A stretch of DNA of 64,000 nucleotides from a virus: the IMG/VR virus record IMGVR_UViG_3300037805_000894; one strand, given 5' to 3'. Position numbers and translations under genes: made by a program. The notes beneath the pieces were generated by a model that worked only from the letters and a program-made list of their open reading frames with translations, was not told where the DNA came from and did not search any database. Positions 28,660 to 57,038 of this stretch are shown piece after piece (the first letter of the stretch is position 1; each line of letters opens with the position of its first letter).

Positions 28660-28857
28660 TTATTTAATATCTTCGTAAGCTTTCAATGCTACGATCTCAG
28701 TGCCGTTATCTCTAACACGGTCTTCGAGTATTTGTAGCGTCACGCGTTGGTTTTCGACCTGAGATGCAATTTTTTCAAGCCGTTTATTCATTACTAGTAG
28801 CTCTGAATCAAACTTGCGTGTGGGGTTAAATAAGTTTTTTATTTTTTCTAGTATCAT
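28660..28857 (-). CDS. small coiled-coil hypothetical protein
   Basis: 65-aa ORF. Confidence 0.5.
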   Translation of the reverse strand: MILEKIKNLFNPTRKFDSELLVMNKRLEKIASQVENQRVTLQILEDRVRDNGTEIVALKAYEDIK

Positions 28858-28863
28858 TTTTAC

Positions 28864-28885
28864 AAAAAGGGGGAGTTCAACCCCC
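28864..28885 (-). terminator. intrinsic terminator after the lysozyme gene
   Basis: Minus strand GGGGG-TTGAACT-CCCCC-TTTTT. Confidence 0.65.
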
Positions 28886-28895
28886 AGGTGAAGAC

Positions 28896-29405
28896 TCAGT
28901 ATAACTGAGCCTTCACCTTCTTCCAGTACTTTTTAGTACTGGTTTTCAACGGCCCCCTTGGGCCGCCATTGTGCGTCCGGGCGATTGTCGCCCAATCACC
29001 CTCCTCCCAGGCCTGGGGACAGTATCGCCCCATGTACGCGGAGATTATCTTCTCCGCATACATCTTGTCCCGGCAGTCTTGGTAGACTCCCGAGCCAACT
29101 TTGGCCACCGCATCTTGCCAATAAGCAAGATGGATCTGGTAAGGTCCTATGGCCTTACCGTCATCCCCATCGGGGGGTGTTAGCGATCCACTCGCCTCCA
29201 CCTCCCATAAGGCCTCCAAGAAGGCCTCATGTGTTACCTGTGTCACCTGTGGTGCCTGGGTGGGCCACGCCACCTGTGTTGCCTGTGTTGGCCCCACTAG
29301 CATGGACACAAGAAAACCTGTGGCTATGCCCAGTGCGTATAAGATGAGGCCAAACCTCAGCTTCTGCCGCTTCAGTGAGCGGAATTTTGGGAAGAATACT
29401 TCCAT
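28896..29405 (-). CDS. invertebrate-type (destabilase-like) lysozyme with N-terminal membrane anchor
   Basis: ALWEVEASG, GKAIGPYQIHLAYWQDA, YMGRY, IARTHNGGPRG, YWKKVK; SD AAGGAGG. Confidence 0.8.
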   Translation of the reverse strand: MEVFFPKFRSLKRQKLRFGLILYALGIATGFLVSMLVGPTQATQVAWPTQAPQVTQVTHEAFLEALWEVEASGSLTPPDGDDGKAIGPYQIHLAYWQDAVAKVGSGVYQDCRDKMYAEKIISAYMGRYCPQAWEEGDWATIARTHNGGPRGPLKTSTKKYWKKVKAQLY

Positions 29406-29513: not shown

Positions 29514-29578
29514 ATTTATAAAAGTAAAAAGATTAATATATTTATAAAAGTAAAAAGATTAATATATTTATAAAAGTA
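29514..29578. repeat. 26-bp tandem repeat, 2.5 copies
   Basis: Unit ATTTATAAAAGTAAAAAGATTAATAT. Confidence 0.9.
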
Positions 29579-29814: not shown

Positions 29815-29973
29815 AAAAAGAAATTTCAATATAATGTGTGTAATTTATCAAAGCGATCAACTTTGTTAAAAGGTTACCTATTTAACTAGGAAGGAGAATA
29901 CCTTAAATTAACAGCCATTACCTTACCAAACTAGTATTTGTAAGTTAATGAAATTTCTACTCATTTCTGAGTA
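29815..29973 (-). ncRNA. putative structured ncRNA A
   Basis: Promoter upstream, 5' hairpin, nested stems closed by AGAAATTTCA/TGAAATTTCT, then a U-run; no credible ORF or SD. Confidence 0.6.
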
Positions 29974-30467: not shown

Positions 30468-30495
30468 TTATACCTAGTATATGTATTTTTTTTAA
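30468..30495 (-). promoter_or_regulatory. repeated phage promoter, copy 4
   Basis: TTAAA-N16-GGTATAA. Confidence 0.7.
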
Positions 30496-32321
30496 TGCGT
30501 ATCTGCCCAATTACTGCCTACCTTATACTCACCTGTCATAGGGCAATCTAAGCCTAATATATCAGTAGTATCTTCTATGCATTTCACAGCTATACGTCCT
30601 ACCTCATCGGCAAGATCTTCCCTAGCTTGTATCTGTACTTCATCATGTATATGCCCTACTTGTTGTACCTCTTTAGGTGTCCAGCCTCGTTTGGTGAATT
30701 CGGCGTCCATTAAAACAGTAGCTTGTTTCATGATTACCGCACCAGCTGATTGAAGTAATACATTAAGCGCAGCATGCATAGCTCTAATAGGCAAAGGCCT
30801 ACCATCTAAGCCACGGATATATCCACGACGATTAACAGTAATTTCCACTTCTTTCATAAGCTTCTTTAAGCCTGGTAAAGTTTCAAAGAATTTCTTTTTA
30901 ATCTTTTTACCATCAACAGCAGTACCTCCCATAATACTACCGATCTTGGCGTCACCTGCGCCATAATTAAGAGCATAGATAAAAGTCTTAGCTTGGTCTC
31001 TAGTGTCAAGACCAGCTGCTTTTTGATTAGCTGTATGAATGTCTCCACCCAATACCTCTTTTACATAAGTACCTTGATCCCATTTATACGTATAATGAGC
31101 TAAGCACCTTAACTCCAAGCCAGAGGCATCACAACCTATTAATTTATAACCCTCAGGCACAACAAAGAGCGATCTGCACTCTTTACCATATGGAGCACGT
31201 ATAGCAGGCACTTGACCCATGTTTGGATTTGAATGGCTACATCTTCCAGTAACTGTACCGTTGTGATTAATACGGCCATAAATACGCCCATCTTTTACAG
31301 ACTTAAGCCATGCTTTTGCGCCATCAGCTAACTGCCCTAAACGTTTAGTAATCATTAGGTATTCTCTGAATAAAGCTACTTCAGGATAATCTAAGTCTTT
31401 AAGAGTCTCCTCATCAATCTTAGGCTTACCTGTTGCTGTTTTTTCAGTAGGCTTCCAATTGTATTTCGCCATTAAAACAGCGGCTACTTGATCTCGGCTA
31501 CCTGGATTAAAAGGTGCTGTCTTGGCTTTAAAAGGACCTGGTTTTAAACTACCTCTAATGCTCTTAGGAGCAGAGCCTTTGTTAGTATATCTAGTATCGA
31601 AGAAGCCTTGATCGTCTAACCAATATTCGGGCGTTTTAAGATAAGTTACTATAGGAGGAAAGCTCTCCTCCAAGTTATATTGAATATCCTTTTTCTTTCG
31701 CAATAAAACTTGATGTAGTTCTTGGGCTGCCTCCCAATCGAAATGCCACCCATGGGCCATTTGTTTTTCCAAGACCCTAAAAAAGGCATGCTCTAACTGA
31801 CAAGCTTGTTCCGGTATATCCCTTAGGTGTTCCCAAAGCTTTAGATTAACTATCGTATCCTGTACGCAATACAAACCCATTTCTTCTGAGTAATTAGTCC
31901 AATCACTATTTTTACCAAAGTCACCTTTAGCCTCATCTAAACGATGGCCCCATGCTTCTAAACCGTGTCGTCCCCATAACTTAGAAGGAATACGCCTTTC
32001 CTCTTCGTCCTCATTAAATACATCACTATGCTCTACACGAGCCATAATCAAAGTATCTCTCACAAGACCCTTAGGCCTCCACTCAGGATAAATCTTTTGA
32101 ATAGCTGGTATATCAAAATTAATAATATTATGTCCTACTATAGTATGAGCATTAGCTACGATATCTAAACCTTCTTCGATTCTATCAGGACCGAAGAGCT
32201 CAGATTCGCCATTTTCTAATACCACAGCAATACAATGTACCTTAGTCATTGAGGGTATGAGTCCATCGCTTTCAATATCGAAAACAAGGGTTTTATCTTT
32301 TACATTTTCAAGCGTAATCAT
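30492..32321 (-). CDS. polA: family A DNA polymerase, T7 gp5-like, with 3'-5' exonuclease
   Basis: FDIESDG, GHNIINFD, YCVQD (Exo I-III); DASGLELR, RDQAKTFIYALNYG, HDEVQ (A-C). Likely start is ATG 32321, 6 nt after TATAAT. Confidence 0.95.
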   Translation of the reverse strand: MITLENVKDKTLVFDIESDGLIPSMTKVHCIAVVLENGESELFGPDRIEEGLDIVANAHTIVGHNIINFDIPAIQKIYPEWRPKGLVRDTLIMARVEHSDVFNEDEEERRIPSKLWGRHGLEAWGHRLDEAKGDFGKNSDWTNYSEEMGLYCVQDTIVNLKLWEHLRDIPEQACQLEHAFFRVLEKQMAHGWHFDWEAAQELHQVLLRKKKDIQYNLEESFPPIVTYLKTPEYWLDDQGFFDTRYTNKGSAPKSIRGSLKPGPFKAKTAPFNPGSRDQVAAVLMAKYNWKPTEKTATGKPKIDEETLKDLDYPEVALFREYLMITKRLGQLADGAKAWLKSVKDGRIYGRINHNGTVTGRCSHSNPNMGQVPAIRAPYGKECRSLFVVPEGYKLIGCDASGLELRCLAHYTYKWDQGTYVKEVLGGDIHTANQKAAGLDTRDQAKTFIYALNYGAGDAKIGSIMGGTAVDGKKIKKKFFETLPGLKKLMKEVEITVNRRGYIRGLDGRPLPIRAMHAALNVLLQSAGAVIMKQATVLMDAEFTKRGWTPKEVQQVGHIHDEVQIQAREDLADEVGRIAVKCIEDTTDILGLDCPMTGEYKVGSNWADTH

Positions 32322-32384
32322 TAAAGTATTATACCCACTTAAAGGCAAAAAAATAGAGAGAAGTATTAACCTCTCCCTAGTGAA

Positions 32385-32960
32385 CTAAGCTTCTGCTAGT
32401 TCTTTATCACGTTTAAAATCCTTCTGCAGTTTAAACTCTTTGTATACATCAGGGTCTATAAGTAACCGTCTTCTATTAAAGTATGTCTTAACGGCTTGAT
32501 CGCGGCACTCGCAATATGAGCCGTAGGAAATACCTAGCTCATCCATCAGCCTCTGCATTTCATCATCGTCTAACTCCTCGAAAGCTCCTCGCATTAGCTG
32601 CTTATAAGCGAAGTTAGGATGCATGTTTATTATATTCGCTAATACATTTAAAGCTTCTGTATCGTTTGTCATGAAATTTAAAACCGTCATCATTACTAGC
32701 CCTTCGGCCTCGAAATCTGATTTAATTAAATAGTAGATGTTCTCGCCACCTACTGTTCTATTTTTTTCGCATTTATCAAGTAAATGATTAACGCGTTTTG
32801 TTAATTGTGCTGTTTGCATTTTATTAAAAGAAAAGGGTAAAAGAGCCAGAGGTTTTAAGTCCCTCTGGCAAGACTCTTGATTTTTTTTACTAAAGGAGGT
32901 AAAGTAGGAGAGAGAATCTCCCTCAATTTTAATGAAAAAGCTATCAAGATCTTTCATCAT
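32385..32960 (-). CDS. hypothetical protein
   Basis: 191-aa ORF. Confidence 0.6.
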   Translation of the reverse strand: MMKDLDSFFIKIEGDSLSYFTSFSKKNQESCQRDLKPLALLPFSFNKMQTAQLTKRVNHLLDKCEKNRTVGGENIYYLIKSDFEAEGLVMMTVLNFMTNDTEALNVLANIINMHPNFAYKQLMRGAFEELDDDEMQRLMDELGISYGSYCECRDQAVKTYFNRRRLLIDPDVYKEFKLQKDFKRDKELAEA

Positions 32961-32989
32961 TAAAATAAAAACTACTTTGAGGCGAGGGG

Positions 32990-33136
32990 AAAAAGATTAG
33001 TAGTATGTCCAACAATGCTGAGTACAGCATTAGATTATCAAACGCTATTCATAGGCATTATGTTTAATCTTGTCAGGAATATTAAGCATTGCTGACGTAA
33101 CCACTAATCTTTACAGGCATGTTGCTTGTGCAACCT
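32990..33136 (-). ncRNA. putative structured ncRNA B (four-way junction)
   Basis: Promoter upstream, 5' hairpin, three internal hairpins closed by a 13-bp stem, then a U-run; G-U pairs work only on the minus strand. Confidence 0.65.
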
Positions 33137-33183
33137 TTATCTGATACTTATTTATACCTATAAAAGTACCTATTTTTTAGTGC
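33137..33183. repeat. 47-bp exact direct repeat, copy 1 (contains promoter copy 5)
   Basis: TTATCTGATACTTATTTATACCTATAAAAGTACCTATTTTTTAGTGC, identical to 34027-34073. Confidence 0.95.
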
Positions 33184-33253
33184 ACCTATCTCTTACACTT
33201 ATATAAAGAGCAGCAGCTAATGCTGCTGGTATGCAGATGAGAAAGAAAGGCAT
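33170..33253 (-). CDS. 27-aa hydrophobic mini-protein MPFFLICIPAALAAALYISVRDRCTKK
   Basis: TAATG coupling to 33253..33474. Confidence 0.4.
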   Translation of the reverse strand: MPFFLICIPAALAAALYISVRDRCTKK

Positions 33254-33474
33254 TATTTGCCCGGGCAGTAAATAACGTAACCCATCCCTAGTTGATCAGA
33301 CTCGTAAGGCACTGGGCTGGCGAAATCCGCCACATTTTCTACCTGAATGGCGGGACATTCTTCTCCCATCATACCTCTACCCGAGTAATGGAATACATCG
33401 TATCCCGCACTCATAGCGGCTATAATAAATTTATGTTGCGGGGAAGACAACGTATCTAAACGAACTTCTGTCAT
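33253..33474 (-). CDS. small phage hypothetical protein
   Basis: YSGRGMMGEECPAI..DQLGMGYVIY; SD AGGAG. Confidence 0.75.
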   Translation of the reverse strand: MTEVRLDTLSSPQHKFIIAAMSAGYDVFHYSGRGMMGEECPAIQVENVADFASPVPYESDQLGMGYVIYCPGK

Positions 33475-33479
33475 TTGAT

Positions 33480-33735
33480 TACTCCTATTTAAGGTTAAAG
33501 AAAAAAACAGGCAGATGAATCATCCTGTTTCGTTGGGGTTAGTTATCTTACCCACCTGACCCAACTATCTCCTTGCAGGAGTAGTTTTATTTAGCTTCCC
33601 CCCATAGGGATCTAAATTTACCTTTTACCTTCATCCAGTAATATACATACTTACATATGTTACATATGCACGGTTTCACCTCCTTTCGGAACGCTCTGAG
33701 CTTAAGATCTGTTTATACTCGCTCAGACGAGTTAT
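33480..33735 (-). promoter_or_regulatory. structured 5' leader or ncRNA C with SD-led minigene and anti-SD
   Basis: GGTATAA box at 33741-33747; about six hairpins; AAAGGAGGTGA-N4-GTG CAT ATG TAA. Confidence 0.55.
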
Positions 33736-33768
33736 CTTTTTTATACCTCTAGAGGTATTTAAAAAAAT

Positions 33769-33802
33769 AGAAGCCCAACATATAATGTTGGGCTTCTTTT
33801 TC
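33769..33802. terminator. bidirectional-type intrinsic terminator
   Basis: AGAAGCCCAACAT-ATA-ATGTTGGGCTTCT flanked by A and T runs. Confidence 0.85.
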
Positions 33803-34026: not shown

Positions 34027-34073
34027 TTATCTGATACTTATTTATACCTATAAAAGTACCTATTTTTTAGTGC
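34027..34073. repeat. 47-bp exact direct repeat, copy 2 (contains promoter copy 6)
   Basis: Identical to 33137-33183, 890 bp apart. Confidence 0.95.
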
Positions 34074-34132: not shown

Positions 34133-37100
34133 ATGGCTATTCCCAATAAGGCAAAGAAAGGTATCTTTCGAGACACACCTCCTCTAGTTTGGTCCCCAGC
34201 ATTCGGGGGTTTCAAAAATGATACAATTAATATAAGATTAGTATCTAGAAAATTAGCGTTAAATCCTAATGAGATACAGGGAGGTATATATGAAACAGCT
34301 GTAAAGAGTGCTACTATTACTTTAGATGAAACTGTTAACCCCCTTATATCCAATAAACCTTACAAGAAAAGATCTAAGCAAAAAATGCTCAAGGTAGGAG
34401 ATAGTCTTGGCGTAGTAGAGTTTGATAATCTGGTAGAAGTGAACCAAGGACATAAGAAGAAAGATTACACATTTGATGTGTCTAAAGTATTCCATATTAA
34501 GTTAAAGGAAAAGCTATCTACACTAATATTTTTAAAGCACGCAGAACTCGCCGGCGAAACAATTACCCTTCCAGTTATACTAACATTTACTTATCGGGAT
34601 AAAGGAATAGAAATTTTAAAAGGTGCTATCAACATTAAGATCGAGCAGGCTACGACGCAAAGAGGTAAGAATTTTCTTTATGGCGGTATTAGGGAAGCTA
34701 CTACATTAGGTGTTATGGGGTACACAGGCGTGCAGGACAAGACTTTACCCTTAGTAAATATTGAAAACAAGTTGCTGGATACGTATTCATATAGTCCTTT
34801 AGCGTTTTCTCCTTCTTCCACGAATGCGGCTTCATTAAGCTTATATGGTAAAGCATTAGCTCTTCGTAAGTATGATATAGAGCGTAAAGTAAAGCAAACG
34901 ATATCAATACCAGCATACAATATAAAGTTTGGCTCCACTAAAGAAGGCTTATATAAGGTGTCCTACAACAAGGTATCTAAGGTATCTATTACCTTCAATA
35001 AGGGGATCACCTCTATACCTTTATATGGTGCTTTACGTGTTACTGATTTAATGCAAGACTCTACTGGGAATAGCTTTAGGTTAAAAGCTAAGAATATAGC
35101 AAACATAACTAATCCGCAAATAGTAGCATACGCATTCAAGGGTAAAGGGGATGTTTCTAGCATCTTTGATAGCAATATAGCCACGAGCACTATACCGTAT
35201 GAGCAAGTTAGTACTGATGAGCGTATTTATAAGTTCAAGTATACTACCGAATTTAATTCGTTTATTAGCTCATTTCGTGGTTCTGGTTCGCTATATATAG
35301 GCTTTAGCGGAACAGACTTCAAAACAGGTGAATATATTTATTACGCTTCGCCTGATATGTATCTCGAAGTTAATAAAACCTCTAACATACTAAACGTAAG
35401 CGCTTTAGATACACGCTCATTCTTTGAAGATATCACATTAAAAGGCTCAAACTTTTTAGATAACAAGTTACCTAAGTTTGATCAGATTAGAACTGACCTT
35501 ATGTATGTAACGGCTAAAGGCGCTTTAGAGTCTAATGCATATCAAACAGAGATTTTAAACACAGATGATATACATATTATAAATTCAAGCAGGCTCACCT
35601 TTAATCTTGAACCGTCTCAGTTACTTTCCTCTTTTATTAAATCAGGAAAGCGTGTAGCTTTAAGGGTTTCGCTCTTAAAAAATGGACAGTTTCTTGAAAA
35701 TTCAGACGCATTTATAGCTATAGAAGAACCAGCAATCCAACGTAATGTTTTGGCTGGTGCCACAGTCAGAAACGGGTTATTGCAAAAAGAAGGTATCACT
35801 ACGCTTTCCTTTAATTCAGTTAGTAAGGCCTCTCAGGATGGTTCGGTTAGTATTTTACTCTTTAAGCCTGGCACAATACCAAACAACCCCTTAGCTTTAC
35901 CAGTACAAGGTAAATCTTCTTTTACATCTAATAACATAGTTGGTTATATAGATTTAATCAACAGTTCACTAAGAAGCCAAAAGGGTTTATTTCATATAGA
36001 TGGGACAGTTAAACTAACGGGAGACACTGCAGGGCTAGAAACAGTAGATGTTTTATTCTTACATAACACTACGCCTAACGTTGATTTCAAAGGTACATAC
36101 AAGCAATACGTAATAGCTAAGAATCTTAAGCTATCCACTAGCAATACAACGCCTATACAGCCAGTTAGTAGAAACTCTTTGTTCCAATGGACAAAAGGTA
36201 AAAGGGCAGACTTTACCTGTACCACAGATTTCAGTGATGGTGGTCACGCAGCTAACCCTTCTTTTGTGTATACAGCAACAGGGGAGCTAATTGGAGAAGC
36301 TTTCCCTGATGACAACCTAAAGGATATTGAAAGAAATGTACAAGAGTGGCGCTTAGTAGATGAACAACACATTAAAGATTACAAGCAAAGATGGCATGGT
36401 GTAGCTGATGTAGTTATTGAAACGCCTTATCCGATTACACAAGAATATACGACCCAATCAGTAATGATAGGTAGAGAACCTCAAATTATAGGCTTAACGC
36501 CATATGGTGATCGTTATATGGAGATAAATGGTACTGGCTTTTCTTCTGAGAATAAAACACATACACAAGCTGGTTTAGAGAAATGGGAATCATGTGTAAA
36601 TGGTGTCTCCTTTTACAATAAAGTTTCAAAAGATTTGGTTGGCCACGTACCATATACTGATGAGGTCCTCCGTTCAAGTAATGGACATGAGCGATTCCAT
36701 ATAGACGTTGCAGGTATTTATGATTCAAGCTCACCTCAAGACTTATATGCTGTCGTATCTACAGATTACGGCTGTGATTGGGAGACTCTTTCTCTTCATA
36801 CTGCTTCGATTATTCTTAGCACTACTATCAGTGCTACGAAGAGTGTATCGGGACAGATGATAAGTAAAGGTGATACGATAAGTATTGATATCGAAGGCGA
36901 TATTCATACCACACAGTCTTTAACACCTATTACAGTTCTACAAGGAGCCAATACTACAACCATCACAGATAACTCTAAAGTGTATTTAAGATATTCTGAT
37001 GGCGATTACACTACTGCATCTACATTTAATCAACGCGTATATTGTTTAATGCATTCCTTAACTGGGATGTCTGCTGGGTCGCTTACTGTTTCTTTTGACT

Positions 37101-56663: not shown

Positions 56664-57038
56664 TTAAAATAGTGAGAGTATGTATTTACGATCTCTGAGC
56701 CTGAACCGCCTATGGTTATAGACATATTCAGCCACGCTATCGCATAATTCCTCTTCCTCTTCGAGGGCGAGGTCGAGGTCGCTTTCGGCGATGCTTGCAT
56801 GAGTTACCTCATGCAAGCATGTGAGTACTGTATCGTACTCACTCAAGCCGCTATTGACCCAGACTGGGCGCCCTTTTAAGGTGGTGTAGCAAAGGCCATA
56901 TAGGCCTTCGCCTACGACCTTATGCAGTGCATCATACACAGCAGAGACTGCTCCAAGGAAGCCCCCAACTACGAGGACATTTTCACCTCGTACTCTCTCT
57001 AGGACTGTCCTTCTTAACTTTCTTAGGTTTTTTGTCAT
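56664..57038 (-). CDS. small HExxH metallopeptidase-like protein
   Basis: LYGLC, CLHEVTHA, EEELCD; promoter TTAAA-N17-GGTATAA at 57045-57073. Confidence 0.6.
   Translation of the reverse strand: MTKNLRKLRRTVLERVRGENVLVVGGFLGAVSAVYDALHKVVGEGLYGLCYTTLKGRPVWVNSGLSEYDTVLTCLHEVTHASIAESDLDLALEEEEELCDSVAEYVYNHRRFRLRDRKYILSLF

Follow-up and report, generated by a model that had tools for sequence, protein, structure and literature searches.

T7-like phages place RNase III processing sites in their own mRNAs. Substrates of E. coli RNase III typically comprise two helical turns, and internal loops limit the cleavage to one strand, leaving protective hairpins (PMC1540722). The T7 signals R0.3 and R1.1 and the RNase III-sensitive lambda N leader are found at leader or intergenic positions of phage mRNAs, as is the element analyzed here, RNA B, which maps to the minus strand at 32990–33136 of a 64-kb stretch of viral DNA (IMG/VR record IMGVR_UViG_3300037805_000894; the whole stretch of 64,000 nucleotides is called the window below). 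Like the T7-type signals, RNA B is predicted to contain at least about two turns of double-stranded RNA and an internal loop; it is located between a promoter and the first gene, and its phage has a T7-type polA. On the other hand, the T7 sites are simple hairpins of ~60 nt whereas the rod of RNA B bears a multibranched apex of 55 nt, there is no sequence relationship between them, and cleavage of RNA B is predicted by analogy.

Other described elements resemble RNA B in different respects. The retron msr-msd, the YrlA Y RNA and 6S RNA are of similar size and have paired 5′ and 3′ ends, and RNA B has a 13-bp terminal helix around a folded domain of ~100 nt. However, RNA B has no Rfam match, its 4×4 loop is not a 6S-type bubble, and it has no T-loop. 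A retron was rejected since, despite the 13-bp terminal repeats, there is no Rfam match and no reverse transcriptase among 36 ORFs of the window, which also contain no RNase III or Ro/TROVE gene. MITE palindromes (ERIC, Correia-like) share with RNA B, a 121-bp imperfect palindrome with 33-nt arms, the potential to give a transcribed hairpin. RNA B is single-copy; neither the window nor viral contigs nor species genomes yielded a further one, and a MITE was likewise rejected. RNA B is a real and unusual sequence feature, an orphan with a well-supported promoter and a predicted fold, and it is probably an RNA structure that controls the gene ahead of the DNA polymerase.

Genomic context and transcription unit

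The window encodes a T7-type family A DNA polymerase (polA, 30492–32348, minus strand; Pfam 5.8e-53), whose best identity to cultured marine podophages is 45%, together with a ribonucleotide reductase, a helicase, a sigma-like protein, a baseplate protein, a dUTPase and two giant ORFs of 3135 and 5148 aa. Its sequence is also present in contigs of up to 155–158 kb from many samples. Among ~15 billion proteins, the phage clade was found to comprise just three further lineages: L005 (Tara), L006 (ENA) and L050/L007 (137-kb contig), with polA proteins 73%, 61% and 55% identical to that of the window, respectively. Synteny is kept in L005, whose contig starts with a homologue of the giant gene, and in L050 and L007 a homologue of the 191-aa gene that follows RNA B is found directly upstream of polA. 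In the window, a minus-strand island of short transcription units, including that of RNA B, extends between the giant gene (start at 34133, plus strand) and polA.

The earlier note had described RNA B as promoter-driven, and the motif counts bear this out. The GGYATAAA-type motif GGYATAAAWNANT has six matches in the window against 0.37 expected, all of them on the minus strand within the 29.4–34.1 kb interval; it recurs in the related phages and stands before leaderless genes. CTAAA is found 16–17 nt upstream of five of the six copies, and the sixth (30462) has TTAAA. The RNA B promoter and the first nine transcribed bases belong to an exact 47-bp repeat (33137–33183, identical to 34027–34073). 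In the leaderless genes (polA of the window, L005, L006, L050) a TATAA(A/T) hexamer precedes the start codon by 6–7 nt, and from this spacing we infer that transcription of RNA B starts near 33145. As for polA itself, GGGTATAAT is followed after 6 nt by an ATG at 32321 (32319–32348, minus strand); the gene is probably leaderless, as in L005 and L006, with a product of 609 aa that matches the calls in other contigs, and the TTG at 32348 given by the ORF finder is probably not its start. Upstream of the lysozyme promoter, two exact tandem units of 26 bp (29514–29565) have TAATCTTTTT in common with the 3′ arm of RNA B.

The RNA B unit has terminators on both sides and contains a single ORF (32960–32385). 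The upstream hairpin has a 7-bp stem with five GC pairs, followed by CTCTTTATAT. Two readings had been put forward, a standalone RNA or a leader of the 32960 gene, and it is the leader that fits better with a terminator-bounded unit in which an ORF comes next. Indeed, the previously reported lack of an ORF or Shine-Dalgarno sequence is true within the element, but a 191-codon ORF is located at 32960, only 31 nt past the stem. The U-run after the stem is present but short: of its five U, three belong to base pairs of the stem, and CCCC comes next. The base of the stem next to it is AU-rich and encloses 95 nt, and a scan with a terminator consensus makes no call. The stretch from stem to ORF contains no convincing terminator, the next real one being that at 32354–32379. 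Since a convincing terminator is missing here and an ORF begins 31 nt beyond the stem, we consider RNA B as a 5′ leader and not as a proven standalone RNA; the untranslated leader would be 185 nt long (Table 1).

The spacer between the stem and the AUG is unstructured and G-poor and carries the CCCCUC motif, and AGGAG is present at the genes neighboring the 191-aa ORF. In the predicted fold of the 346-nt leader region (z = −4.5), CCCCUC pairs with GAGGGA at 32925–32919 and the start codon is enclosed. The homology of the 191-aa ORF to its relatives starts at M48 (ATG at 32819–32817), whereas the first 47 codons (32817–32960) are without counterpart in the L050 homologue, and some gene callers use M48 (144 aa). 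A terminator-like hairpin (32845–32869) lies within these 47 codons, its U-rich tail just ahead of M48, yet their codon score is coding-like. The start codon of this ORF is therefore uncertain. The protein has no Pfam or PHROG match and no relatives in IMG/VR or the JGI metagenome collection; a word-index search recovers only the protein itself, and an exhaustive HMMER search adds one family member, P0122. Its predicted structure (pLDDT 46.5) is unusable, and an Atlas look-up yielded no lead.

Table 1. Features of the RNA B transcription unit, in order of transcription
Feature	Position	Strand	Basis
Terminator-like hairpin closing the upstream 73-aa gene and insulating the RNA B unit	33211..33228	-	
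Phage-type promoter (CTAAA, 33180-33176; GGTATAAA, 33158-33151)	33146..33183	-	motif count and relatives
Inferred transcription start	33145	-	spacing in leaderless genes
5′-proximal hairpin GUUGC-ACAA-GCAAC	33121..33134	-	sequence and fold
Rod, 5′ arm (closing 13 bp, 33100-33112; inner 11 bp, 33085-33095)	33080..33112	-	
Apical region, 55 nt, weak alternative hairpins	33025..33079	-	predicted fold
Rod, 3′ arm (closing stem, 32992-33004; inner helix, 33009-33019)	32992..33024	-	
C-rich motif UCCCCUCGCC, immediately 3′ of the stem	32981..32990	-	pattern scan
191-aa ORF without Shine-Dalgarno sequence	32385..32960	-	
Terminator ending the unit, just before the leaderless polA promoter	32354..32379	-	

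Predicted rod and cloverleaf folds of RNA B

A base-by-base check retrieved all of the helices proposed previously, that is, the 5′ hairpin (GTTGC-TTGT-GCAAC, 33121–33134), the closing stem (32992–33001/33103–33112), which reaches 13 bp with one G-U pair on the minus strand only, and the three arms inside it (33014–33020/33025–33031, 33032–33037/33065–33070, and 33072–33076/33092–33096). The segment 32992–33024/33080–33112 is the longest hairpin-forming inverted repeat of the whole window, its arms giving on the minus strand 24 Watson-Crick pairs, three G-U pairs and five mismatches. The preference of G-U pairs for the minus strand exists (three vs. one on the plus strand) but the asymmetry is weak. 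The minus strand of 32985–33140 (156 nt) folds with a minimum free energy of −42.9 kcal/mol, better than dinucleotide-shuffled sequences (z = −3.91; 1 of 200 shuffles equally good), and the excess is weaker on the plus strand (z = −2.67). In a sliding scan with 130-nt windows the one nearest RNA B has a composition-corrected z of −3.0 and is not among the top 25 of 6,400; RNA B is therefore not the most extreme fold.

The favored predicted fold is a rod, composed of the closing 13 bp, a 4×4 internal loop and an inner helix of 11 bp, with a 55-nt apical cap. It accounts for ~98% of the predicted ensemble with pair probabilities of 0.7–1.0 (closing helix ~1; inner helix 33085–33095/33009–33019, 0.7–0.99). 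The four-way cloverleaf put forward in the earlier note is a minor alternative in this calculation (−34.2 vs. −37.0 kcal/mol for the rod, i.e. 2.8 kcal/mol worse), its arms having probabilities of 0.01–0.15; the middle arm and portions of the two outer ones fall in the apical region of the rod. Rod and cloverleaf are mutually exclusive because the segments 33084–33096, 33025–33031 and 33007–33020 are mutually complementary. The cloverleaf could still occur as a kinetic state, since local hairpins could be the first to form as the RNA is transcribed. Directly after the 5′ hairpin there is also a 12-codon ORF (MPVKISGYVSNA, 33082–33120, minus strand), which covers the 5′ arm of the rod and has no good Shine-Dalgarno sequence; its translation, if any, would open the rod.

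Database searches and counterparts in related phages

Rfam was searched with cmscan over 32700–33800 and nothing overlaps 32990–33136, either at the gathering threshold or at E-values up to 10. The tRNA mimic suggested previously finds no support, as ARAGORN reports no tRNA gene in the window and no model of the Rfam tRNA clan matches at E up to 10. Known self-cleaving ribozymes were rejected on the same ground, the hammerhead, twister, twister-sister, hatchet and HDV models giving no match at E up to 10. The sole Rfam match in this region is the neighboring Pistol ribozyme, and a blastn search of 32300–33800 against a phage database also gave Pistol as the single match. An exact 27-mer of RNA B has no match in viral contigs, the window contains no second copy of the element, including any DGR template, and a consensus of its terminal repeats has no match in 185,579 species genomes. 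Searches of viral, metagenome and genome collections with the promoter and start region or with conserved blocks of the sister RNA described below gave nothing or chance matches, and nhmmer, local alignment and k-mer chaining reveal no homologue of RNA B. Within the lineage of the window, 13 contigs were retrieved, 12 of which reach RNA B (7 of the 12 partially). The element is identical in all 12 of these other contigs; the lineage is clonal, with differences only at positions 33408 and 32766, and these copies consequently carry no covariation signal.

Comparing the four lineages, it is the architecture at this position that recurs and not the sequence. In L005, L006 and L050 an equivalent promoter is followed by a basal rod of at least 24 bp (~25 bp in L006, >20 bp plus an outer helix in L005, and ~29 bp in L050) that is unrelated in sequence to that of the window, a likeness of architecture that was recognized post hoc. 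The fold z-scores of these three elements are −3.3, −5.0, and −2.9. The elements of all four lineages have in common the motif CCCCUC(R)(G)C, located 3′ of the rod. It is found twice in 128 kb of the window, one occurrence being directly after RNA B, and once each in L005, L006 and L050, always within the element. In all three relatives an ORF lacking a Shine-Dalgarno sequence comes after the motif. RNA B was rejected as a homologue of the L006 element, the promoter and AAGGUUGC close to the start being all that the two have in common. In L006, a 34-codon ORF for a hydrophobic peptide, without Shine-Dalgarno sequence, is located 5 nt past the CCCCCCUCAGC motif of the element (L006:4377–4481), a layout that resembles a small membrane peptide after a structured leader.

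The elements of L005 and L050 (L005:3634–3891 and L050:4722–5000) are, on the other hand, clearly homologous to each other and correspond to a promoter-driven RNA of 260–280 nt. Their overall identity is 76%, with 91% in the 3′ half, a higher conservation than that of polA, for which the same two lineages show 55% protein and 62% DNA identity. Of the 45 pairs predicted for this RNA, 8 display compensatory changes; these pairs belong to the rod and the outer helix. The MAFFT register of the rod was unreliable. A possible pseudoknot between CAUUAACA and UGUUAAUG and a hairpin with the loop AUCCCCUC are also seen. This RNA hardly varies among nine contigs of the L005 lineage, and there is no Rfam match. 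This sister RNA resembles RNA B in its promoter type, its location between the giant gene and polA, its long basal rod, the CCCCUC(G)GC motif and the ORF without Shine-Dalgarno sequence that comes next, which in L050 is the homologue of the 191-aa gene of the window. However, none of the blocks invariant between L005 and L050 (among them GAUAGUAGAGUGAAUAACCUA and the 3′ domain that ends in GGGUCGACAAGUUGCUUGGACGGCCCACC) is found in the window. RNA B was also rejected as a copy of this RNA, since an nhmmer --max profile search gave no match in the window below E = 60, and local alignments of the two yield z-scores of 0.2–1.7 against shuffles. The window stands nearer to L005 than L050 does, so that the module has been replaced and has not drifted. 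The L005/L050 RNA looks like an undescribed RNA family; it is a better candidate for a new family than RNA B and more promising for follow-up.

Other units of the island are structured as well. The Pistol ribozyme (33674–33732, minus strand, 60.2 bits) starts ~8 nt past the promoter-like element GGTATAAAA, another copy of the promoter, and would thus be placed at the extreme 5′ end of the transcript of the 73-aa gene. L006 has a further Pistol with a lower score (35.3 bits), upstream of a sigma-like gene (L006:778–837). A 5′ hairpin or a Pistol ribozyme also opens other transcripts of the island, and such 5′ ends fit a general theme of 5′-end processing or protection. ncRNA A (29819–29958, minus strand; z = −2.7) is a second unit without ORF. 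Its closing helix of 9–10 bp leads into a UUUUUGCUAAA junction resembling those at the hairpin terminators of the island, and it has no homologue in the related lineages.

Possible functions of RNA B

Our preferred reading, which we hold tentatively, is that RNA B is a leader element processed by RNase III that sets mRNA stability or translation. A one-gene transcript would extend from ~33145 to the terminator at 32354–32379 with RNA B as its structured 5′ leader, and would display, in this order, the 5′ hairpin, the long imperfect hairpin, the G-poor CCCCUC spacer and the AUG without Shine-Dalgarno sequence. Its working part would be a double-stranded rod exceeding two helical turns, which the RNase III of the host may cut at or near the 4×4 internal loop; how long the downstream message lasts and how well it is translated would depend on this cut. 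The predicted helix has the length (about two helical turns) and the internal loop of an RNase III signal. Moreover, a rod longer than two helical turns, free to change in sequence, recurs across the lineages together with the promoter, the C-rich tail and a gene without Shine-Dalgarno sequence; the double-stranded rod is the most obvious candidate for the working part. On the other hand, the multibranched apical region is in contrast to the simple sites of T7, and the closing helix of ncRNA A comprises only 9–10 bp, so that RNase III cannot account for every structured unit of the island.

Several alternatives have to be weighed against RNase III processing. RNA B could instead be released as a standalone RNA of ~155 nt (~145 nt in the earlier note) if a part or the majority of transcripts terminate at the closing helix and the U5 directly 3′ of it. 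It would then act in trans, as a decoy or sponge or, by way of its C-rich tail, as an anti-Shine-Dalgarno regulator. The like design of ncRNA A, ORF-less and with a closing stem running into a terminator-like junction, speaks for this possibility, but we consider it unlikely in view of the AU-rich stem, the pairing of three of the five U, the 95-nt ‘loop’ and the silent terminator scan; furthermore, the CCCCUC motif would be located beyond the putative 3′ end, a coding-like ORF is immediately next, and the real terminator is only at 32354–32379. The three mutually complementary segments, with two folds 2.8 kcal/mol apart and local hairpins forming first during transcription, are also what would be expected of a cis-regulatory switch between rod and cloverleaf states, and the CCCCUC–GAGGGA pairing that encloses the start codon, next to a G-poor spacer without Shine-Dalgarno sequence, is compatible with such a switch or with a protein-binding operator, whose structured domain would nucleate a protein on the unstructured start region as in the autoregulation of T4 gene 32. 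Either is rather improbable: no riboswitch or leader family of Rfam matches at E up to 10, conserved junction nucleotides are not definable, and the downstream protein is without Pfam or PHROG match. The structure might also be incidental and devoid of RNA function: a MITE-like insertion behind a duplicated promoter, an old and imperfect inverted duplication, or what is left of a cassette recombination event. RNA B has no homologue and all non-coding elements of the island are lineage-specific, the 47-bp exact promoter repeat indicates recent recombination at this place, a 121-bp imperfect palindrome is of MITE size, and the G-U strand asymmetry is weak. We nevertheless find this reading doubtful, because the element is single-copy in the window with terminal repeats absent from the 185,579 species genomes, an analogous rod occupies the equivalent position in three other lineages, and the fold excess is greater on the transcribed strand.

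The same stretch could act at the level of DNA, as a transcription-primed replication origin or as an operator with four AGATTA half-sites. It is a promoter followed by a non-coding stretch directly upstream of the polA module, and AAGATTA/TAGATTA occurs four times in symmetric arrangement (32993, 33031, 33065, and 33105). Yet the heptamer is present in the window at chance frequency (25 vs. 22.8 expected) and its local copies are the stems themselves; in addition, the region is not AT-richer than its surroundings and the GC skew only tracks the direction of transcription, which makes a DNA-level role very unlikely. That RNA B is a self-cleaving ribozyme of a new class, or a catalytic or ligand-binding RNA of some other kind, appears extremely improbable, as no ribozyme model matches at E up to 10 and a single sequence defines no conserved core. 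What speaks for it is the neighborhood, with one Pistol 540 nt away and another in L006: searches next to known ribozymes gave twister-sister, hatchet and pistol as well as non-cleaving structured RNAs (PMC6765202), and the new classes came from just such neighborhoods.

A broader proposal, to which we assign a distinctly low probability, unites RNA B, ncRNA A, the L006 element and the L005/L050 RNA in one undescribed class of phage RNA modules. Such a module would consist of a promoter-proximal domain of ~120–140 nt with a closing helix of 13–29 bp, followed by CCCCUC in RNA B and in the L005, L006 and L050 elements. It would recruit ribosomes to genes without Shine-Dalgarno sequence, or represent a new processing ribozyme beside Pistol, and the modules would be exchanged between phages by recombination at the common promoter. 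If the rod of RNA B is functional, this clade of uncultured marine phages (~137–158 kb, with a T7-type polymerase and giant genes) controls early and replication genes through promoter-proximal RNA structures. The toolkit would include hairpins, the Pistol ribozyme and large closed domains, each seemingly exchangeable at the common promoter. It would then offer a natural system for the shaping of phage mRNA 5′ ends by ribozymes and double-stranded RNA, and a model for the translation of genes without Shine-Dalgarno sequence where the host otherwise uses one.

Among all 130-nt windows of the stability scan, the most over-stable ones are found on the minus strand at 28821–28990 (composition-corrected z down to −7.0), where the lysozyme gene ends and its terminator follows, and at 56701–56910 (down to −5.5); both exceed RNA B.
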